Of a DNA stretch of 64,000 bases, positions 8,767-35,834 are shown piece by piece. The stretch's first letter is position 1. The number at the start of each line of letters is the position of its first letter. The position numbers and the translations under genes are program-made. Below the pieces are notes generated by a model. The model made no database searches, was not told the DNA's origin, and saw nothing but the letters and a program-made list of their open reading frames with translations. The DNA lies in NCBI GenBank assembly GCA_045637685.1, contig JAZTZW010000018.1, positions 52,004 to 116,003 on the forward strand. Direction: 5' to 3'. This DNA comes from Eubacteriales bacterium (GTDB taxonomy: Bacteria; Bacillota; Clostridia; Oscillospirales; CAG-382).

Positions 8767-9000
8767 AAAAGGGGGCTGTCGCTTTTGGTCTAAACCGAAA
8801 AAATCCGACAAACAAATATAAATAACGCAAACCAAGAACCAAAAGGTGAACTTGACATAAAAATAGGTTGAAATTCTTCGAATTTCTTCCGTTTAAATAT
8901 CGGATTTTTTCTATCGCGCTTTGCAAGGCCCGACGTACCTTTGTACGCCTGCGCCTTGCAAAATCTCGATTTTAGCCGCAAAATCGTTCGCCCCAAATAA

Positions 9001-9035
9001 AGAGGCTGTCTCAATTGCAGGATTGAGACAGCCTC
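9001..9035 (-). terminator. rho-independent terminator downstream of the 613-aa gene (usable in both directions)
   Basis: agaggctgtctcaat-tgcagg-attgagacagcctct, a 15-bp (14 paired plus one mismatch) stem 6 nt after the stop at 9042. Confidence 0.65.
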
Positions 9036-9041
9036 TCTCTG

Positions 9042-10883
9042 TTAAATTCCGAAAATTCTTTTTCCGATAAGCATACCGAGCGTTATTTCGGCAACCGTCC
9101 AGCCGGTTTCGATACAGCAGGGACCCCAGCCGACGTCGTGCGGGATTCCGAAATATTCAAGCCGATTCAGGTCGATACCTCTGCACCAGCCGCCGTTGGT
9201 TTCTGCGCTTTCGGTTATAAGCTGTGTTTTTATAAAAAATTCGCAAATTTCGCGCCAAGCTTGATAAAAACAGCCGTCGTTCGTTATTAAAAACGCAACA
9301 GCAAAGCCGAGCGGGAGCCAATTTACCGAATATAGCAAATCCGCCACGGGGTCGCCGTTTTTCGCAAGGAGCGAGCATTCGCCGCCTTCGTTGTTAAAGC
9401 AGACCGCCTTGTAGCCGCTGTCCCATTCGGCATAACCGCCCGATTCGTGGCGGTGCTTTTGCAAATCGCGAAAAACGCGATAAAGCATTTCCTTGTGGTT
9501 TTCGGCACGCGTAACGCCGTAAAGCAAGGCGAGAGGGAGAATAAGTCTGCAAAGCTCGCTTGTTTCGCTGTGCTCGCGCACGGTTTCGGGGTATAGCGAC
9601 ATAAGCGTTTCGATACCGCGAACACCAACCGCTTTAAATTCCTCGTTGCCGCTTATAAGATAACCCAAAAGCAAAGCCGCGCTGTAATATGCGTTATAGT
9701 GCGCGCTTGCATAGCCCTGCTCCGCCTGCTTTAATTCAAAAACAGATTTGTTTTCACGCAGGAATTCAAGAATATCGGTGCGCATCGGGCGCAAGCCGTC
9801 CTTCGGGGTTGTTTTGCAAAGAAAATCAAGCGCGTTCAGCGCGTTTTGCTTGTATTTATCGGTCATATCGAAATACGAAGCCAACAAGGTCGGCATTATT
9901 GCGCGGGCAACGTCGTCCTGATAGCAAACGCCCCACGCCTCCTCCGACCAGCGCACCATATTTTCGAACTCGCCGCTGTGAACGGTTAAAGGTCCGTAGC
10001 AAAGCGAGAACATATTATCCGCGATGCTTCGAAGCTTTTCGTTTTGCGAAAACATAAACGCGCCCGCCGCCTCGCCCGTGCAATCGGTGCGCACAACGTT
10101 CGCGCCGATGCGTCTTCCGTCGGGGTGGATATTGTGGCTGAATCCTTCGCGTATGCCGTATTTTCCGTCGGGTGAAACGAGCTGTTTTTCCAAAAACGCA
10201 AGCGAGCGTTCGATACAGCCTGTTAGCTCGTCTTCGAAGCTTTTTTTAAGCACGCGCTTTACCGAAAGAGCGTTTTTGCTTGGTATTTCGGGTGCTTTTA
10301 GTCCCAAAAACCTAAAAATATACGCCGTAAGTGCATCAAACCGCGCCTTCGGTGCAAACGCGCCGTTTATATAATCGCAGAAACGGAATGCACATTGAAG
10401 AATATTCGAATATTTAAAAAGCGCGGGGGAATCGGTTTGTGCGACCGATTCGAGCCTATCGTGCGCGGGTGTGTATTTTTGCAAATAAAGCAGTATTTCG
10501 GTTTCGGGCATAAGAAAATGCGGGCGGATATACAAATTGTAATGCGGGTCCAAAAGCTCGTTTTGCTTAATATCTTCGCATATATCGCGCGCGGCGGCGA
10601 GCCTGTGGCAGGTAAGCCGTTCGGGCTGTGCCGAATAAATACAGCGAAACGATGCGACGTATTCCAAAAATATCGGCTTACCGCTTTCGGCAAAATGCTC
10701 GAGCCTTTCGCGCAGGTAGGGCGAAAGCATAATCGGCGCATCCTCCGTGCCGCCCAAAACTGCGACGGCGGAATAAACATTAAGCTCTGTTACTTCCTCG
10801 GGCGGAAGAATATCGCAATTTCCAAGCTTTTTGAAAAGCGAGGAAAGATTGCTGTTTTTTCGTGTTATTACAAGTGTTTTCAT
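9042..10883 (-). CDS. hypothetical two-domain protein (613 aa), C-terminal part possibly (alpha/alpha)-toroid glycosidase-like
   Basis: Long ORF translationally coupled (ATGA) to the upstream serine hydrolase. Helix-repeat-like C-terminal half rich in W/Y/G. No signature recognised. Confidence 0.7.
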   Translation of the reverse strand: MKTLVITRKNSNLSSLFKKLGNCDILPPEEVTELNVYSAVAVLGGTEDAPIMLSPYLRERLEHFAESGKPIFLEYVASFRCIYSAQPERLTCHRLAAARDICEDIKQNELLDPHYNLYIRPHFLMPETEILLYLQKYTPAHDRLESVAQTDSPALFKYSNILQCAFRFCDYINGAFAPKARFDALTAYIFRFLGLKAPEIPSKNALSVKRVLKKSFEDELTGCIERSLAFLEKQLVSPDGKYGIREGFSHNIHPDGRRIGANVVRTDCTGEAAGAFMFSQNEKLRSIADNMFSLCYGPLTVHSGEFENMVRWSEEAWGVCYQDDVARAIMPTLLASYFDMTDKYKQNALNALDFLCKTTPKDGLRPMRTDILEFLRENKSVFELKQAEQGYASAHYNAYYSAALLLGYLISGNEEFKAVGVRGIETLMSLYPETVREHSETSELCRLILPLALLYGVTRAENHKEMLYRVFRDLQKHRHESGGYAEWDSGYKAVCFNNEGGECSLLAKNGDPVADLLYSVNWLPLGFAVAFLITNDGCFYQAWREICEFFIKTQLITESAETNGGWCRGIDLNRLEYFGIPHDVGWGPCCIETGWTVAEITLGMLIGKRIFGI

Positions 10884-15902: not shown

Positions 15903-16442
15903 ATGGACACTTATCAGATAATCGCACAATCCGTCGGCATCGTCGCGATGGCTTTGAACATCATTTCCTACCAGATGAAAAAGCAAAAAAGCATTATTGT
16001 AATGCAGTTCTTCGGCGCGGCGCTTTTTACCGTTAATATGTTTATGATAGGCGCGATAGTCGGCGGGTTTTTAAACGCCGTCGGTGCAATCCGCGCGATA
16101 ATTTATTCGAACAAGCAAAAATTCCGTGCCGATAGGTTTATATGGGTTTTGGGCTTCGGCGCGCTTTATCTTGTTTCTTACGCACTTACCTTTTTGGTGT
16201 TCGATAAAGAGCCGACATCGCTTAATCTTATCGTTGAATTCCTTCCGATTATCGGTATGTTTGCAACGGGTATCGGCTTTTATTTAAAGGAAGCGCGCTC
16301 GGTGCGCAGAGCGGGGCTGGTAAGCTCGCCCTCTTGGCTGGTTTACAACATTTTCAATTTTGCAATAGGCGGCATAGTTTGCGAAATTCTCGCGCTTATT
16401 TCGATAATAACCGCGATGTACCGTCTGGACAGAAAGAAATAA
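15903..16442 (+). CDS. YgjV-family inner membrane protein
   Basis: 179 aa with 5-6 hydrophobic helices and a YgjV-like N-terminus (IAQSVGIVAMALNIISYQMKK). Confidence 0.7.
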   Translation: MDTYQIIAQSVGIVAMALNIISYQMKKQKSIIVMQFFGAALFTVNMFMIGAIVGGFLNAVGAIRAIIYSNKQKFRADRFIWVLGFGALYLVSYALTFLVFDKEPTSLNLIVEFLPIIGMFATGIGFYLKEARSVRRAGLVSSPSWLVYNIFNFAIGGIVCEILALISIITAMYRLDRKK

Positions 16443-16447
16443 ATATT

Positions 16448-16480
16448 AAAACGGCTTGGTCAAGCACCAAGCCGTTTTTT
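16448..16480. terminator. bidirectional terminator hairpin
   Basis: aaaacggcttggt-caagc-accaagccgtttttt between convergent genes. Confidence 0.65.
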
Positions 16481-16481
16481 G

Positions 16482-17279
16482 TTATTCAAGCTCACATATA
16501 CCGCAAACCGGTGCAACTTTAAGCTTTAGGCTGTTAACCGATTCGGTATTTACCTCGAAGCCGTTTTCGTGAAGCGAAACAAGGCTTTCGTTATAGGCGA
16601 TTTCGGGGCGGTTGTTTTCCTCGCTTAAGTGGGCAAGTGCGAACGAACGCGTTCCGTGTTTTGCGAGATGCGGCAAAAGCCTTGCGCAAAGCTCGTTCGA
16701 AAGGTGGCCCCGTTCGCCGAGAATGCGTTGCTTTAATTGATAGGGGTAGGAGCCGCCTTTAAGCATTTCTATATCGTGGTTCGATTCGATAACCACGCGC
16801 TCGCAACCCGAAAGTCCGCGAAGCACGTTTTCGGAAAGGTGGCCTATATCGGTAAAATAGCCGATTTTTTCCTCGCCCGCGCGGATACGGAAGCCAACGC
16901 TTCCGCGCGCATCGTGGGGGGTGGCAACGGGGCAAAGCGCAAGGCTTTTAAGCTCTATTGCTTTTCCCGAATTCAGCGCGATAAGCGGTTTTTCGGGCGG
17001 CATACGCTCGTAAATACAGTTGCAGCTCGCCTCGGGCGCATATATGGGAATATTGTAATATTTCGTTATTGTGCCAAGCCCGCATATATGGTCGCCGTGC
17101 TCGTGCGTGATAAAAATTGCGGATATGTTTTTAAGGCTCGTGCCCAAAAGCCCAAGCGAATTTTCGATAGACCTTGCCGAAACGCCGCAATCTATAAGTA
17201 TTTCGTCGTCGCCGTATTTAATATAACAGCTGTTTCCCTTTGAAGAGGAAAAAAGGGTATAGACCTTTGCTTTTTCCAT
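16482..17279 (-). CDS. MBL-fold metallo-hydrolase (YycJ-like)
   Basis: HxHxDH motif (THEHGDH). 265 aa. Confidence 0.85.
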   Translation of the reverse strand: MEKAKVYTLFSSSKGNSCYIKYGDDEILIDCGVSARSIENSLGLLGTSLKNISAIFITHEHGDHICGLGTITKYYNIPIYAPEASCNCIYERMPPEKPLIALNSGKAIELKSLALCPVATPHDARGSVGFRIRAGEEKIGYFTDIGHLSENVLRGLSGCERVVIESNHDIEMLKGGSYPYQLKQRILGERGHLSNELCARLLPHLAKHGTRSFALAHLSEENNRPEIAYNESLVSLHENGFEVNTESVNSLKLKVAPVCGICELE

Positions 17280-21466: not shown

Positions 21467-22882
21467 CTATCCTATAACGTAAGTTCCAAAGTAGTGGCGT
21501 TTTATAAGAATGTAATCGTATTGGTCGACGGAGCTGTCCTTGTTGACATCGCTCGTAAGGCTTTGAAGCGCATCGGGCGAATAGGTTTCGAAATAAATGC
21601 GCTTTGCAAGAATGTAATCGTAGGTATCGACAGTACCCGTGCCGTTAATATCGCCGAGCACCGCAACGGTATATGAATTTGTTCCGTCGGTAAGTATATA
21701 GCCCGTGCAGACGTCGCCTTCGGTTATTTCGTTTCCTTCCTTATCGGTAAGAGTAAAGCCGTTAAGCGGCGCAAGGAAATCCGAAGCCGAGGTTTTTTCG
21801 GCAACGAAGCACAAAAATCCGTTTTCGATAATATATCCAAGCTCATCGGGGATAATTCCCGTCCCGCCCTTTTCGACCGAAACCGAAATACTGCTTCCGC
21901 TACCGGAAACGATTTGGTTTAGGTTATTAAGCGCAAGCACGCTTTCGCCGCCTACCGAAAAATTACCGATATCGCCTTCGCTTGCGATAATTTTAAAGGG
22001 GACGGTGACCGTTAGCGAGCTTCCCGAATCGAGCCGTTCGGATTTTGTTATGGATTCTGCCGTTACAGCCGCAAAGCGCAGGATATAAACCCCTTCGGCT
22101 TCATCAAGCGTGCACATCTGCTCCCAGCCGTTTTGCGGCATATCTGTCATAAATATATCCATTTGGGCGGCGGTGTTTTCGGTTATCTCGGGGGCAAACA
22201 CGGTTTTGTCGTATTTCAGCGCGAGCTGAAGCGCGATTATACCCGCGGTGTCGCCAAGGTTGGTTACCTTTATTTTTAAATTGTAGCTTCCGTTTTCGTT
22301 CGCTCTTTCGTTTCCGTTAAGCGAAATTGCAAGCTTTTGGGCTTCGCTGTCGGCAAAAACGGTAAGATTGCCTCCTTTGCCCGACATCGGGGTATAGCTT
22401 TCGTCCGCGGCTATTGCAATAACGTCGGCGTCGTTTACCGTAAAGCTAAAGCTTCCCGCCTTTTTTACGGTAAAGGGGATTTCTAAAGTAAGCTCGCCCG
22501 CCGCGTCCAAATAGCTGTTGCCGCTATCGGGAAGAGCAAAGCGGAAATGGTAATACCCGCTTGTCGAATGAAAGCTCATCTGCTCCCACCCTTCGGGCAT
22601 TTTAGCAACAAGCGCGTCCATTTCTCTGCCGTCTTCGGTGTTTTCTGTTATAATCGGGGTAACGTATTCGCTGTTGTAGCTCAGTATAAATTCAAGCCCC
22701 GCAAGCGCAACGGCAGGCTTCGAAAGCGTTATTTTTATCTTCACCTCGCCGCCCGAATAGGCGTCGCCCTCGCAGGAAAGGAAAAGACTTACCGCGTCTG
22801 CTTCGGCTTTTATTTTAACCGTCGGAACGGCAAGGCAGAGTATAAGCAATAATATTACCGTTTTTAATCCGAACGATTTCAT
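21467..22882 (-). CDS. secreted protein with two cohesin-like modules and a C-terminal dockerin
   Basis: Signal peptide, then two ~140-aa beta-rich modules with the shared pattern (L.Y....V.P.ITENT...M....MP.GWEQM). C-terminal duplicated Ca-binding dockerin segments are DINGTGTVDTYDY and DVNKDSSVDQYDY. Confidence 0.75.
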   Translation of the reverse strand: MKSFGLKTVILLLILCLAVPTVKIKAEADAVSLFLSCEGDAYSGGEVKIKITLSKPAVALAGLEFILSYNSEYVTPIITENTEDGREMDALVAKMPEGWEQMSFHSTSGYYHFRFALPDSGNSYLDAAGELTLEIPFTVKKAGSFSFTVNDADVIAIAADESYTPMSGKGGNLTVFADSEAQKLAISLNGNERANENGSYNLKIKVTNLGDTAGIIALQLALKYDKTVFAPEITENTAAQMDIFMTDMPQNGWEQMCTLDEAEGVYILRFAAVTAESITKSERLDSGSSLTVTVPFKIIASEGDIGNFSVGGESVLALNNLNQIVSGSGSSISVSVEKGGTGIIPDELGYIIENGFLCFVAEKTSASDFLAPLNGFTLTDKEGNEITEGDVCTGYILTDGTNSYTVAVLGDINGTGTVDTYDYILAKRIYFETYSPDALQSLTSDVNKDSSVDQYDYILIKRHYFGTYVIG

Positions 22883-31742: not shown

Positions 31743-31761
31743 TCAATCTTAATCAATAAGC

Positions 31762-31796
31762 AACAAGCTGTCGCAACCATATCGCGACAGCTTGTT
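31762..31796. terminator. bidirectional terminator hairpin
   Basis: aacaagctgtcgc...gcgacagcttgtt followed by a T-run, between convergent genes. Confidence 0.65.
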
Positions 31797-31802
31797 TTTT
31801 GT

Positions 31803-32753: not shown

Positions 32754-34058
32754 ATGGAAACATTAATGCCAATAGGCATAGCTATGACAGCAGGTCTTCT
32801 GCTTTCGCGTCTTGTTAAAAAATTAAAGCTTCCCGCAGTAACCGGTTATCTTATAGCGGGCATTCTCGTAGGTCCCTATTGCTTGGGCGCGCTTGCTCAA
32901 ACGATCGGCATTTCTTGGCTTGGCTTCGCAACCGAGCACGCAGTTAAGAACAACTCTATTCTTTGCGACGTTGCTCTTGGCTTTATCGCGTTCGCTATCG
33001 GTGATGAATTCCGTCTTTCTTCCTTGAAAAAAATCGGTAAGCAGGCAACCGTTATCGGTATAGTTCAGGCGCTTGTTGCAACTATACTTGTCGATGCGGC
33101 GCTTATCGGCATACACCTTGCATTCCCCGAGGTTATTTCGGTCGAAGCAGCTATCGTTCTCGGTGCGGTGGCAACCGCAACCGCTCCTGCCGCAACCCTT
33201 ATGGTCGTGCGTCAGTATAAGGCAAAGGGTAAATTGACCGACATCCTTCTTCCCGTTGTTGCTATCGACGACGCGGTAGGTCTTGTGGTTTTCTCGGTTT
33301 CCTTCGGTATCGCACAGTCCTTAAACAGCGGCGCGGGTATGGATATCGCGTCGGTGCTTATTAACCCCTTGCTCGAGGTAATTCTTTCGCTCGCGCTGGG
33401 CTTCGTAATGGGCGTGTTCTTCAGCTACGCAGAAAAATACTTCAAATCCAACAGTAAACGTCTTATCCTTTCCATTACCTTCGTAATTATGTCGGTTGCG
33501 CTTTCTATGTATAGCCGCACCTTCGAGCTTGCGGGTATGGAATTGCATATCAAGTTCTCCTCGCTTCTTGTTTGTATGATGCTCGGTACGGTATTTTGCA
33601 ATATGTGCGATTTCTCCGAGGAAATTATGGGCAAGACCGATAAATGGACCGCGCCCCTCTTCCTGCTCTTCTTCGTGCTTTCGGGTGCAGAGCTCGATTT
33701 CGGCGTGTTCGGCGATTTCTCTGTTATAATTATCGGCGTAGTCTATATCCTTGTGCGTGCGGCAGGTAAACTGCTCGGCTCGGCAGTCAGCGCAAGAGCA
33801 ACCAAATGCGAGCCCAAAATCGTTAAATATCTTGGCATAACCCTTCTTCCCCAAGCGGGCGTTGCGCTCGGTATGTCGCTTATCGTGGCAAACACCGCAG
33901 GCTTCGAAGAGGTAGGCGCTATCGTTCGTAATATAACCCTCTTTGCGGTTCTTGTTTACGAGCTTGTCGGTCCTATGCTCACCAAAATCGCACTTACCAA
34001 AGCAGGCGATATTGTTCCGCGTAAGGTTATTAACCTCGGCGAAGAAGACGACGACTAA
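32754..34058 (+). CDS. cation:proton antiporter (CPA2/Na+-H+ exchanger family)
   Basis: 434 aa, about 12 hydrophobic helices, N-terminal KLPAVTGYLIAGILVGP motif. Confidence 0.85.
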   Translation: METLMPIGIAMTAGLLLSRLVKKLKLPAVTGYLIAGILVGPYCLGALAQTIGISWLGFATEHAVKNNSILCDVALGFIAFAIGDEFRLSSLKKIGKQATVIGIVQALVATILVDAALIGIHLAFPEVISVEAAIVLGAVATATAPAATLMVVRQYKAKGKLTDILLPVVAIDDAVGLVVFSVSFGIAQSLNSGAGMDIASVLINPLLEVILSLALGFVMGVFFSYAEKYFKSNSKRLILSITFVIMSVALSMYSRTFELAGMELHIKFSSLLVCMMLGTVFCNMCDFSEEIMGKTDKWTAPLFLLFFVLSGAELDFGVFGDFSVIIIGVVYILVRAAGKLLGSAVSARATKCEPKIVKYLGITLLPQAGVALGMSLIVANTAGFEEVGAIVRNITLFAVLVYELVGPMLTKIALTKAGDIVPRKVINLGEEDDD

Positions 34059-34075
34059 AAAAACGTTTAAAACAG
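34058..34075. repeat. 18-nt perfect inverted partner of 34178-34195
   Basis: aaaaaacgtttaaaacag is the reverse complement of ctgttttaaacgtttttt. A second arm pair, 34117-34128 / 34155-34166 (acaaacacgacc / ggtcgtgtttgt), is nested inside. Confidence 0.9.
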
Positions 34076-34085
34076 CGCATAACAG

Positions 34086-34109
34086 AAAAAGGCGGATTTC
34101 CGCCTTTTT
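34086..34109 (+). terminator. rho-independent terminator of the antiporter gene
   Basis: aaaaaggcgga-tt-tccgccttttt. Confidence 0.65.
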
Positions 34110-34148
34110 CTTTTGAACAAACACGACCGCTCGCAGTAGGTTACTACA

Positions 34149-34199
34149 GCTTCGGGTCGTGTTTGTCCAATCTGCATCTGTTTTAAACGTTTTTTGCTT
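34149..34199. repeat. 51-bp direct repeat, copy 1
   Basis: gcttcgggtcgtgtttgtccaatctgcatctgttttaaacgttttttgctt, identical to 34299-34349. Confidence 0.95.
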
Positions 34200-34298
34200 T
34201 GGACAGCGGCGGGAGCCGATTTTTCATTCTGCATCCACCGTGAGCGTTTTTTTGTTTCAAATAAAATTTAAGGACTGTCATTGAAAATAGCAAACGCG

Positions 34299-34349
34299 GC
34301 TTCGGGTCGTGTTTGTCCAATCTGCATCTGTTTTAAACGTTTTTTGCTT
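34299..34349. repeat. 51-bp direct repeat, copy 2 (exactly 150 bp downstream of copy 1)
   Basis: Letter-for-letter identity with 34149-34199. Confidence 0.95.
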
Positions 34350-34387
34350 CAATATAATATTGAAAAATATTCAATGCATTTTTCAAT
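34349..34387 (+). promoter_or_regulatory. operator-like array of TCAAT/ATTGA pentamers including a perfect 7-1-7 palindrome
   Basis: TCAATATaATATTGA at 34349-34363, ATTGAA-5nt-TTCAAT at 34359-34375, and another TCAAT at 34383-34387. It ends ~40 nt upstream of the ATG at 34428. Confidence 0.4.
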
Positions 34388-34427
34388 GCTTTTAGGTGCA
34401 TAATAAGAAAAAACAAGGAGTGAAATT

Positions 34428-34862
34428 ATGCACGAAAACGATACTTTAAAATTACTGCGTGAATGCGATGCGGGTGTAAAAATGGGTGTGTCCTCGATAA
34501 ACGAGGTTATCTCCTCGGTTAAATCGGAGCAGATGCGAAGCTGTCTTGCCGATTGCCGCAACCAGCACGAAACCCTTCTTTCCGAAATAAAGCAGAAGCT
34601 CGAGGAAAACTGCGACAAGGGCAAAGAGCCTGCGCCTGCCGCAAAGGGTATGAGCTGGATAAAAACCAACGTAAAAATGGCGCTTGACGATTCCGACAAA
34701 ACCGTTGCCGACCTTATTACCGACGGCTGTAATATGGGTGTTAAATCGCTTAACCGTTATATCAACCAATACAAGGCGGCGGACGGCGTTTCGAAGGGCT
34801 TTGCAAACCGACTTATTAAGCTCGAGGACGACCTTGCCGTACAGATGCGTCAATATTTGTGA
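34428..34862 (+). CDS. hypothetical helical protein, possibly a four-helix bundle (ferritin-like/DUF2383-like)
   Basis: Strong SD (AAGGAG). Internal two-fold repeat D-x-G-x-x-MGV-x-S-(I/L)-N (DAGVKMGVSSIN / DGCNMGVKSLN). 144 aa. Confidence 0.55.
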   Translation: MHENDTLKLLRECDAGVKMGVSSINEVISSVKSEQMRSCLADCRNQHETLLSEIKQKLEENCDKGKEPAPAAKGMSWIKTNVKMALDDSDKTVADLITDGCNMGVKSLNRYINQYKAADGVSKGFANRLIKLEDDLAVQMRQYL

Positions 34863-34864
34863 TA

Positions 34865-34896
34865 AAAAAAGAGCTGTGCAAAACAGCTCTTTTTTG
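34865..34896. terminator. bidirectional terminator hairpin
   Basis: aaaaaagagctgt-gcaaa-acagctctttttt between convergent genes. Confidence 0.65.
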
Positions 34897-34898
34897 TT

Positions 34899-35834
34899 CT
34901 ATTCTTCAATATAGGGGAAGCGTTCGCACCATCTGCCTGCGCCGGGGATATACATATCGCAAACTTCGTTGTAATAGCCTTCCCAATAGCCTTCAAGACC
35001 GCCGTATTCGAGCTTGGAAACTGCCATTTCGGGGGCGGGAGCTTCGACATTACCTGCTTCGATATCCGCAATAAGGTCTGCGATAAGGAAATCGATATAG
35101 CCGGTAAGCTTTTCGCCGCCGCTGAAGGTAAGGGTGCACTGAGTAAGCTCGAAAATGCCGCTTGTGCCGTAGGTGTAGGAGAACCAAGTGCCTGCATAGA
35201 CTTCGATTCTGTAATCACCCTCGGGAAGAGCAACACAGCTTATCTCCTGTTCGATCCAAAGCTCGTTTTCGGGCTTGAATTCATCACGCATAAGCGAGCT
35301 GATATAGCTTGTGATCTCCTCGGAGGTGAACGCGAGCTGACCTACGAGCTTGCCTGTTTTGTGGGAATAAACGTCGATAACAACGCCTTTGCTAACATCC
35401 ACGTCGCCTTCGCCGCCGCCTACATAAACGTTTCTCGGGTCGCCTACGGTGTATTCATAAGCGGGGTAAGCGGGAATTTCGTCGGTGGGTGCGCCTTCAA
35501 TGGGGTCGTCCTCGATAACGGGGTAATTTTCGGTTATCGGGGGGAAGGCTTCGGGCTCTTCTTCTTCAAAGCCGTCCTCTTCGACTGCGGGAGGGTCGTA
35601 AGCGGGGATTTCATCGGTGGGTGCGCCTTCGATGGGGTCATCCTCGATAACGGGGTAATTTTCGTCTGCCGCGCCTTCGTCGATTTCCGCGCCGAAGCTG
35701 CCGTTGTCGGCTGTCGATTCGGCAAGTGATTCGTCGATAGCAGAGGTGTTAAGCAGAGAAAGCCCCGCGGTAAGGATAAGCGCGGAAGCGGTGATAAGCG
35801 CCGCGGTTATCAATGCGAGTGTTTTGCTTTTCAT
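34899..35834 (-). CDS. secreted hypothetical protein, family A copy 1 (311 aa)
   Basis: Signal peptide MKSKTLALITAALITASALILTAGLSLLNTSA, an acidic Pro/Glu/Asp-rich linker with an internal duplication, then a conserved core (VIDVYSHKTGKLVGQ) and the C-terminal ERFPYIEE. Paralog of 37252-38121. Confidence 0.75.
   Translation of the reverse strand: MKSKTLALITAALITASALILTAGLSLLNTSAIDESLAESTADNGSFGAEIDEGAADENYPVIEDDPIEGAPTDEIPAYDPPAVEEDGFEEEEPEAFPPITENYPVIEDDPIEGAPTDEIPAYPAYEYTVGDPRNVYVGGGEGDVDVSKGVVIDVYSHKTGKLVGQLAFTSEEITSYISSLMRDEFKPENELWIEQEISCVALPEGDYRIEVYAGTWFSYTYGTSGIFELTQCTLTFSGGEKLTGYIDFLIADLIADIEAGNVEAPAPEMAVSKLEYGGLEGYWEGYYNEVCDMYIPGAGRWCERFPYIEE
35466..35532 (-). repeat. intragenic 67-bp repeat unit 1 (encodes ENYPVIEDDPIEGAPTDEIPAY)
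   Basis: Near-identical to 35598-35664, with a period of 132 bp (44 codons). Confidence 0.9.
35598..35664 (-). repeat. intragenic 67-bp repeat unit 2
   Basis: Near-identical to 35466-35532, differing at a few positions. Confidence 0.9.

Follow-up and report, generated by a model that had tools for sequence, protein, structure and literature searches.

The locus considered here raises the question of what an exactly repeated, palindromic stretch of noncoding DNA represents when it stands directly behind a stop codon. It lies in 64,000 nucleotides (nt) of DNA from an Eubacteriales bacterium (GenBank assembly GCA_045637685.1, contig JAZTZW010000018.1, positions 52,004 to 116,003), hereafter the window, to whose own numbering unlabeled coordinates refer. 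The open reading frame (ORF) of an antiporter (Pfam Na_H_Exchanger) ends there with the stop codon TAA at 34056–34058, and a repeat cluster follows directly 3′ of it. We found that 34057–34349 is a partly decayed three-unit cluster of an extragenic palindromic element, and that its units belong to a hairpin-forming repeat family that is real, conserved, and unmatched to any described family. As to its nature, comparison of the sequences leads us to favor, somewhat short of calling it probable, an element like the REPINs (inverted doublets of repetitive extragenic palindromic [REP] sequences) and the bacterial interspersed mosaic elements (BIMEs), which would at the same time form a terminator-like 3′ structure.

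The first arm of the cluster (34058–34075) is a perfect 18-nt complement of 34178–34195, as an earlier note made from the letters of this DNA had stated, and also of 34328–34345. The exact 51-bp repeat of that note, at 34149–34199 and 34299–34349, was recovered letter for letter; it forms the right half of both unit 1 and unit 3, and none of 100 dinucleotide-preserving shuffles gave a match to the 51-mer even when up to three mismatches were allowed. The cluster region folded strongly on both strands compared with shuffled sequence (z = −8.3 on the + strand and −8.6 on the − strand). Alternative pairings of 34058–34075 exist, and the minimum free energy (MFE) structure joins this arm to its distal partner at 34328–34345. 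The three copies of about 50 nt, one inverted and two direct, that had been described are all present, but a further piece at 34206–34256, which matches the 51-mer at 63%, had been missed. Unit 1 (34057–34195) is a complete long hairpin, and units 2 and 3 retain chiefly the right halves.

A full unit of the family is a single long imperfect hairpin of 110–140 nt. Aligned full units fell into six types, four of them (A, B, E, and F) following the antiporter gene and two (C and D) a gene for an M20 peptidase. The first unit always starts at the very end of a TAA stop codon, overlapping it, in sense orientation to that gene. The outer stem, P1 (17–18 bp), has an A-run/T-run base that overlaps the stop codon. 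Further inward come a junction box, in which C-GCAGA is paired with TCTGC-AT, a bulge of 0–13 nt on the 5′ side, and P2, the 16-bp inner stem. In all types P2 contains an A.C mismatch, which lies three or four pairs in from the outer end. The internal loop, (G/A)CT(C/T) opposite (T/G)(T/G)CG or TTC, is followed by an apical stem of GC, an A.A mismatch and GT(R), closed by a 4-nt loop. Across types the constant core motif is CTCGCAGT..ACAGCTTCGGG..TCTGCATC, and the invariant letters are CTCGCAGT, ACAGC, CGGG, TCTGCATC, and the CG-T-run.

Unit 1 of the window, read on the + strand, follows this plan closely. The 5′ arm of P1 is 34057–34075, and its A-run starts within the antiporter TAA. The 5′ junction CGCATAAC (34076–34083, as placed in the hand alignments A2 and A3) is a degenerate C-GCAGA box; the GCAGA/TCTGC pairs are invariant in the family types other than type A, that of unit 1. 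At the place of the 5′ bulge the window has a 28-nt terminator-like, GC-rich branch hairpin, AGAAAAAGGCGGA TT TCCGCCTTTTTCT (34084–34111, without strand assignment), which is flanked by an A-run and a T-run and has a 12-bp stem in the MFE structure. This is the hairpin that had been seen within the outer arms, and it is indeed there; to say that a normal terminator interrupts the element is less apt, since types B, E, and F carry a 10–13-nt 5′ bulge at this position and types C and D carry nothing. A terminator consensus scan of 33900–34900 reported no terminator, though the hairpin fits by eye (12-bp stem, T-run), and in our opinion it was missed because its T-run pairs with the A-run. The 5′ arm of P2 (34113–34128) is complementary to the 3′ arm (34155–34170) at 15 of 16 positions, so that the inner arm formerly given as 12 nt does pair but is 16 nt long with one mismatch, and the position of the A.C mismatch matches all family types to within one position. 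What had passed for a 26-nt loop (34129–34154) is in fact the most conserved part, an apical core with a 4 × 4 internal loop (GCTC/TTCG) and an apical stem-loop, GC-A.A-GTAG/GTTA/CTAC-A-GC. The 3′ junction box TCTGCAT (34171–34177) occupies family-invariant columns in alignments A1, A2, and A3, and the 3′ arm of P1 with its T-run (34178–34199) closes the first copy of the 51-mer.

Related loci were sought at the same stop codon in other genomes. A scan guided by the antiporter protein gave 80 loci from uncultured Clostridia labeled Acutalibacteraceae, Oscillospiraceae, or Eubacteriales (best protein identity 81%), of which only L005, from a roe-deer colon metagenome-assembled genome, has related DNA: three units in the order B-A-B, directly 3′ of the antiporter stop codon. 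Closer relatives (L107, from assembly GCA_045636285.1, and L108–L110) were found via the protein cluster of the downstream gene. The antiporter 3′ end of L107 is 88% identical to that of the window, and one full unit stands at its stop codon; L109 and L110 have one unit each, and L108 has one unit plus a right-half copy. The offset to the TAA stop codon is the same in the window, L005, L107, L108–110, and the M20 lineage. The antiporter sites of more distant loci (L003, L004, L006, and L007) are empty, with a plain terminator only; in L007 the antiporter gene, this terminator, and a DUF2383-like gene are adjacent. Loose regular-expression matches in other antiporter loci all fell within coding sequence and were set aside as chance. 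In some units (L005 2450–2585 and 2705–2745; L108 about 2320–2350) a second hairpin of about 40 nt, GGGGTCCCCGAAAATC-GAAA/AAAA-GATTTTTGGGGC, replaces the apical loop; what is left of such a hairpin stands ahead of the additional right half in L108. The palindrome tip appears to be a hotspot of insertion and deletion.

Units 2 and 3 of the window can be read against these relatives. Unit 2 (34201–34256, + strand) is a right half only, of an E-like type, and consists of the apical 3′ strand ACAGC, the 3′ arm of P2, TCTGCAT, the 3′ arm of P1, and a T-run. Its part 34201–34250 equals the right half of the single full unit of L107 at 50 of 50 positions by eye; in a scripted alignment 34201–34256 was 87.9% identical to L107, and the identity to the type B unit of L005 was 83%. 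The linker that follows (34257–34289, + strand) is probably the decayed left half of unit 3, and 34203–34298 is 77% identical to the equivalent position of L005 (2438–2532). In unit 3 (34290–34349, + strand) the apical stem-loop is deleted and most of the left half is lost; what is left is a short P2 hairpin (34290–34300 with 34305–34320, 12 bp in the MFE structure) capped by CTTCGG, followed by TCTGCAT, the 3′ arm of P1, and a T-run. This unit is of type A and 93% identical to the type A unit of L005 at 2584–2638.

The conserved pieces of the window and L005 showed 92–94% identity by BLAST, and the 32-nt core ACCGCTCGCAGTAGGTTACTACAGCTTCGGGT was the same in both by eye, while the coding flanks were 77% (L005) and 88–91% (L107) identical to those of the window. 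The element is therefore conserved at least as well as its coding flanks. Copies of the same type were 100% identical within a genome, both in the window and in L005, and 94% and 83% identical between genomes. Judged from these sequences, this is concerted evolution of same-type copies, and the exactness of the 51-mer would result from homogenization between them. Recent duplication or active maintenance had been suggested for the perfect copies; their identity holds within genomes, and homogenization is how we read it. The repeat could also be imagined as an assembly artefact. No independent assembly of the exact arrangement of the window was obtained, and a query with a 55-residue minus-strand ORF matched only the window's own contig. 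An artefact is nevertheless unlikely, because the assembly of another species, L005, has the same architecture, with nonadjacent, 100% identical copies that alternate with a second type.

The family also occurs in a second genomic context. Metagenomes were scanned with a pattern of invariant right-half parts (CAGCTTCGGG, 10–18 nt, TCTGCATC, 6–14 nt, CGTTTT), which is too strict in that type D escapes it; the pattern applied to genome collections was also strict and would miss types D, E, and F. In a human-gut lineage, a 110-nt version of the unit forms tandem arrays that start on the TAA of an M20 peptidase gene, a gene unrelated to the antiporter. These M20-associated arrays were found on 13 metagenome contigs; some of the loci, including the diverged subtype D in L095 and L099, were reached via a spurious ORF query. 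The M20 protein cluster of the host numbers 777 sequences, and the M20 variant P0139 is carried on a contig of 2.33 Mb. For the array of L089, the program TRF reported a period of 110, 8.3 copies, and 93% matches. Arrays on contigs that span both flanks measured 189, 194, 297, 405, and 956 nt. Most of these arrays finish with a unit that breaks off after P2, and such truncation is seen in those that have retained the common right flank. Beyond the array the contigs differ, continuing into an opposite-strand tRNA cluster, htpG, or a third sequence. Empty M20 sites, with a terminator and no array, were present in L101, L103, L105, and L106 (87%, 77%, 75%, and 73% protein identity, respectively). 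One M20 homologue, of 68% identity, is labeled Acutalibacteraceae, and therefore both lineages appear to be of the same broad group; the host organisms appear to be uncultured gut Clostridia, Acutalibacteraceae-like. In the window itself, a minus-strand ORF at 21467–22882 carries cohesin and dockerin domains, which hints at a cellulosome-type fiber-degrading organism, consistent with the animal-gut origin of the relatives.

Several observations concern the contigs that bear the arrays. L083, L086, L093, and L100 end inside 110-nt arrays, and 3836–3935 of L099 is a run of N. Gene callers have translated the arrays into spurious proteins of 100–259 residues, which make up 17 clusters in protein catalogues. 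A coding role was considered and rejected: the period is 110 nt, and the frame of the minus-strand ATG is not kept. The small minus-strand protein beginning MQNEKSAP (TCTGCAT reads ATGCAGA on that strand), present in the window and L005, was dismissed likewise, as it has no ribosome-binding site and its frame relative to the core varies by type. Five contigs with names beginning Ga0302 gave 41-nt pattern matches; these proved to be one common unrelated sequence, a chance match and not a member of the family.

The sequences of P1 and P2 are unrelated among types A, B, and C, yet the stems remain paired. The MAFFT/RNAalifold alignment A1 put the outer stem one column off register, and hand alignments, with gaps written as N, were substituted for it. 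In the hand alignment of the seven stop-codon-proximal full units, 93.3% of the cells were paired, compared with 41–50% when the partners were slid; with ten units, also aligned by hand, 88% were paired. In the set of seven, both sides had changed in 26 of 45 pairs, and the covariation score was reached by none of 500 shuffles. Between types E and F, whose flanking gene is 77% identical, hand comparison of P1 revealed three fully compensatory double substitutions, and compensatory A-T to G-C changes were found in the apical stem of the M20 lineage. The compensation is almost wholly Watson–Crick, and G.U intermediates are nearly absent from the stems.

The gene downstream of the cluster in the window (34428–34862, DUF2383-like) is one possible target of such a structure. 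The earlier note had offered two candidates here, that alternative RNA structures control read-through into this gene or that the repeat is an att-type scar, and together they amount to a switch that controls it or a site that marks it. It is true that the arm 34058–34075 has two possible partners, the MFE structure using the distal one, and that the junction upstream of the DUF2383-like gene is rearranged in the 99.8% identical strain L001. But this gene keeps a conserved upstream region of its own, starting at about 34373, and is present without the element in L007 and L001. In L107 it is separated from the element by two opposite-strand genes and in L108 by one, a distance of 2–3 kb. The family is found after the M20 peptidase gene with unrelated downstream genes as well; no integrase or recombinase is among the 60 ORFs of the window, and the units are hairpins of about 110 nt rather than short core sites. 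The element follows the antiporter stop codon, not the downstream gene, and a switch or att site is barely credible; judging from the comparative loci, it may be regarded as already largely refuted.

The junction itself is variable. The contig of L001 has wholly unrelated sequence upstream of 34373, and that of L002 (99.6% identical) starts at about 34362. These breaks, at about 34362–34373, suggest that the right edge of the cluster is a strain-level rearrangement or an assembly breakpoint. At 34359–34393, upstream of the DUF2383-like gene, the window has a 10-nt palindrome (ATTGAAAAAT/ATTTTTCAAT) and a 12-nt direct repeat (TTCAATGCATTT/TTCAATGCTTTT). In L107 (870–3387) and L108 (2461–4377) an opposite-strand DUF4434/F5_F8_type_C gene, joined in L107 by a GrpB gene, sets the DUF2383-like gene apart from the antiporter and its unit. 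Counting L001, at least four arrangements of the antiporter/DUF2383-like intergenic position exist among close relatives. A 311-residue minus-strand ORF without Pfam match follows in the window (34899–35834); it contains an internal repeat of about 67 nt (35466–35532 and 35598–35664, 91–94% identical), which surfaced as cross-hits in the alignment of the L001 and L002 contigs to the window.

Known families and further copies were searched for by several routes. At the gathering threshold, the window gave no match in Rfam 15, with only sub-threshold terminator-like noise at E ≤ 10, and the elements of L089, L005, and L095 gave none at E ≤ 1. Comparison of the units with phages and plasmids by blastn returned no match, and neither did exact-pattern scans of viral contigs. 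The first pattern run on a genome collection had 0 matches, and the species of the window is evidently not among the representatives carrying the sequence. A covariance model of the family (R1) gave weak hits of 15–22 bits on both strands of the window (8995–9042, 16441–16485, 31757–31801, and others), all short intergenic sites with an A-run, a hairpin, and a T-run. These sites are probably ordinary bidirectional terminators, and the base of the outer stem is accordingly terminator-like.

This likeness gives some room to a functionless origin, in which a bidirectional terminator gave rise to a local palindromic satellite whose palindrome is kept only by intrastrand repair or gene conversion and whose copy number drifts. 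The near-pure Watson–Crick compensation is what templated correction of a DNA hairpin would give, and the half-units and the apical deletions and insertions fit breakage at the palindrome center. A local origin fails, however, to account for the same core motif and mismatch positions after two unrelated genes in different lineages. Moreover, conservation of the unpaired core exceeds that of coding DNA, and correction of one arm by the other would be expected to remove the A.A and A.C mismatches, which every type has nevertheless retained. We consider such a satellite unlikely.

The REPIN/BIME-like reading that we favor would account for the family as follows. Each unit would act like a REPIN, and the hairpin, in single-stranded DNA and/or in the transcript, would be what is preserved; the constant core and the mismatches would be recognition features for a trans-acting factor. 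New loci would arise rarely, the two known ones being those after the antiporter and M20 peptidase genes. The number of units at a locus would change by unequal recombination or replication slippage, and same-type copies would be homogenized by gene conversion, which we propose as the reason for the letter-perfect 51-mers. Right-half remnants such as units 2 and 3 may have been left by breaks at the palindrome tip. The signs that point to DNA rather than RNA are the Watson–Crick compensation, a wobble bias within the arrays that is opposite to that of the full units, the indels at the palindrome tip, and the rearranged right flanks. REP and BIME elements often lie directly 3′ of a stop codon. 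Because it stands past the stop codon but still ahead of the 3′ end of the transcription unit, the element would constitute a bidirectional terminator-like barrier at the antiporter mRNA 3′ end. In the window the embedded hairpin at 34084–34111 probably does most of the terminating, and the cluster most likely serves as the terminator region of the antiporter gene.

Other results weigh against this interpretation. Dispersal was not observed: the 51-mer had no further copy in the 64-kb window, R1 run without filters found one locus there and, in 729 kb and another 91 kb of related sequence, none beyond those already known, and the exact-pattern metagenome scan, too strict for type D, gave one locus per contig, even on a contig of 278 kb. 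These searches covered parts of genomes, and a family of low copy number would be compatible with them. The 60 ORFs of the window, a small fraction of the genome, include no transposase, integrase, or Y1/HUH enzyme; they are ordinary chromosomal genes, among them rml genes and those for PolA, DnaE, a penicillin-binding protein, and sigma factors. Comparison with the empty sites revealed no flanking direct repeat that could be a target-site duplication. A miniature inverted-repeat transposable element (MITE) or REP-like element was the closest of the three candidates of the earlier note, and the hairpin doublet, the extragenic position, the presence/absence pattern, and the decayed half-units bear it out; dispersal and target-site duplication do not. 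The REP hallmark GTAG varies, being GTAA or GTGC in types C and D. Alignments A2 and A3 are not neutral, as they were fitted to the structure by hand. Copy numbers may be unreliable, considering that short-read assemblies have possibly collapsed and that contigs end or are gapped inside arrays. Finally, two independent acquisitions at stop-codon offset 0 and in sense orientation fit RNA selection better, since a random insertion process would not easily produce this twice.

This last point leads to a cis-acting structured RNA in the 3′ untranslated region (UTR), read from the + strand and co-transcribed with the upstream gene, which we regard as possible but rather unlikely. P1 starts in the stop codon, so that a terminating ribosome would have to melt its base; the structure would set mRNA 3′-end stability, termination, or translation output, and its loops and mismatches would bind a protein. 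In Escherichia coli, REPs within 15 nt of a stop codon reportedly have effects of this kind. Besides the constant offset and sense orientation in both independent contexts, the strong covariation, the conservation of the core beyond the level of the coding flanks, and the hairpin insertions of variable length at loops, typical of structured RNAs, speak for it. In our reading of the sequences a canonical terminator lies 3′ of the unit or array in L089, L095, L107, and L109, and the element would then lie in the 3′ UTR; the terminator scan did not flag these hairpins. By the same reading, the terminator after the array of L089 has a T.G wobble on the + strand, which suggests that + transcription reaches it. 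In full, L089 2965–3045 contains two back-to-back terminator hairpins between the array and the opposite-strand tRNA cluster (Gln, His, Arg, Gly); the second, as we read it, has two T.G wobbles on the − strand, and this strand specificity suggests one terminator hairpin per direction of transcription. Against a 3′-UTR RNA, each array unit is followed by a T-rich tract; transcription would tend to end at the first unit, leaving an array of eight difficult to account for. In the window the terminator-like hairpin sits inside unit 1, upstream of most of the element. Copy number is apparently unconstrained, with arrays of 189–956 nt, the two host genes are functionally unrelated, and G.U intermediates are scarce in the stems.

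The strand on which the units fold better bears on this question as well. All eight full units examined fold 5–16 kcal/mol better on the − strand than on the + strand, because three conserved A.C mismatches on the + strand become G.U on the − strand. This, too, argues against a + strand RNA, and it supports an independent multi-hairpin noncoding RNA whose transcription, on the − strand, would run toward the upstream gene and which could titrate a protein as a sponge. On that strand the linkers between units are A-rich and would not terminate, the only U-run comes after the last unit, and the stop-codon-proximal unit with this U-run would be the terminator; the internal loop, as we read it, is purine-rich (CGAA/GAGC). 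A promoter-like TTGAAC-18-TATTAT on the − strand abuts the right end of the array in L089. This site, however, overlaps a terminator hairpin, and chance alone would place about 0.7 sites of this kind in the region; a promoter consensus scan found no − strand promoter beside the cluster of the window, and, as the right flank of the arrays varies between strains, no conserved promoter travels along. The G.U positions on the − strand are common by descent and amount to only about three observations, and the internal array units have the opposite wobble bias, with more G.U on the + strand. Choosing the functional strand by counting G.U against A.C was therefore abandoned: full units favor the − strand and internal array units the + strand. 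An independent antisense RNA is in our view quite improbable.

Taken jointly, the two RNA possibilities could mean that the units are a new class of structured RNA and not selfish DNA, acting as protein-binding hairpin modules either in a 3′ UTR coupled to translation termination or in an antisense multi-hairpin RNA. Each module would be defined by the internal loop, the A.A (or U.U), and the A.C (or G.U), and tandem copies would set the dose. We give this joint claim a limited chance, and the REPIN/BIME-like element remains the account that we prefer.

How far the family agrees with described systems was then considered. REPINs are inverted doublets that form hairpins in single-stranded DNA or mRNA and frequently undergo compensatory changes; they occur in tandem clusters, including clusters of alternating types, and their singlets have been read as decayed remnants (PMC3116915). 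The units share with the REP, REPIN, and BIME elements of Pseudomonas and Enterobacteria the inverted arms that give a hairpin of about 100 nt, and with REPINs the extragenic position, the compensatory changes, the tandem clusters alternating two types, the half-elements as remnants, and the variable presence or absence (PMC3116915). In contrast, REPs have tens to hundreds of copies per genome, and here one locus was seen in the 64-kb window and, by an exact pattern, one per contig of up to 278 kb. REP hairpins have a conserved GTAG at their 5′ foot; the units lack it there, and types A, B, E, and F have GTAG in the apical stem alone. No gene for a REP-associated tyrosine transposase (RAYT, Y1/HUH transposase), which REPs typically flank, was seen in the window, a small part of the genome, and the hosts are Clostridia, not Proteobacteria. 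Furthermore, in REPs the arms are conserved and the spacer is variable, whereas in this family it is the stems that differ without constraint between genomes and the apical core that stays the same. The element thus resembles a REPIN/BIME cluster without being filed as a member.

Other systems are more distant. The 18-bp perfect outer arms recall the terminal inverted repeats of MITEs, from which the lack of a target-site duplication and the single locus per searched stretch set the family apart. Two intergenic families, BOX of Streptococcus pneumoniae and MIRU of mycobacteria, are modular, with variable tandem modules, stable predicted structure, and strain-variable copy number. To go by their descriptions, the units are like them as modular tandem intergenic repeats with predicted structure and a copy number differing between strains, and unlike them in that BOX and MIRU copies are scattered over a genome, at tens to more than 100 loci. 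MIRUs also contain short ORFs that are coupled to their neighboring genes and have a period that suits translation, whereas 110 nt, the period of the units, is not divisible by 3. Rho-independent bidirectional terminators have the same A-run, hairpin, and T-run directly after the stop codon, and the empty sites have a plain terminator there. Their stems are of 5–14 bp, compared with about 45 bp in the units, which have conserved internal loops and mismatches, share a core across two unrelated genes and several species, stand in tandem, and are usually followed by a separate canonical terminator in our reading. The attC sites of integrons and CALIN arrays are also imperfect hairpins of 60–140 nt in arrays, in which structure prevails over sequence and unpaired bases are conserved, with strand-specific function in attC. 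No R″/R′ boxes (RYYYAAC/GTTRRRY) are found here, the unit ends being AAAAAACG and CGTTTTTT; the units abut at a period of 110–150 nt without cassettes between them, and the window has no integrase. In type III toxin–antitoxin systems the tandem RNA repeats precede, on their own strand, a terminator and a gene for an endoribonuclease toxin; no such toxin gene lies downstream here, where the genes vary (DUF2383-like, tRNAs, htpG, and others).

The family has a practical consequence, as its arrays break short-read assemblies, whose contigs end inside them, and seed spurious proteins in metagenome catalogues. Should the units turn out to be a functional RNA module, the family would gain in interest. 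With two insertion contexts and empty sites in sister species, it provides a tractable system for asking whether such an element is mobile DNA or a useful 3′-end RNA. To our knowledge, it is mainly in Proteobacteria that extragenic palindromic repeats whose hairpin is preserved have been characterized. A family of uncultured gut Clostridia with clear compensatory evolution, a constant core, strict stop-codon adjacency, and a copy number that apparently varies would widen the known range of such elements.

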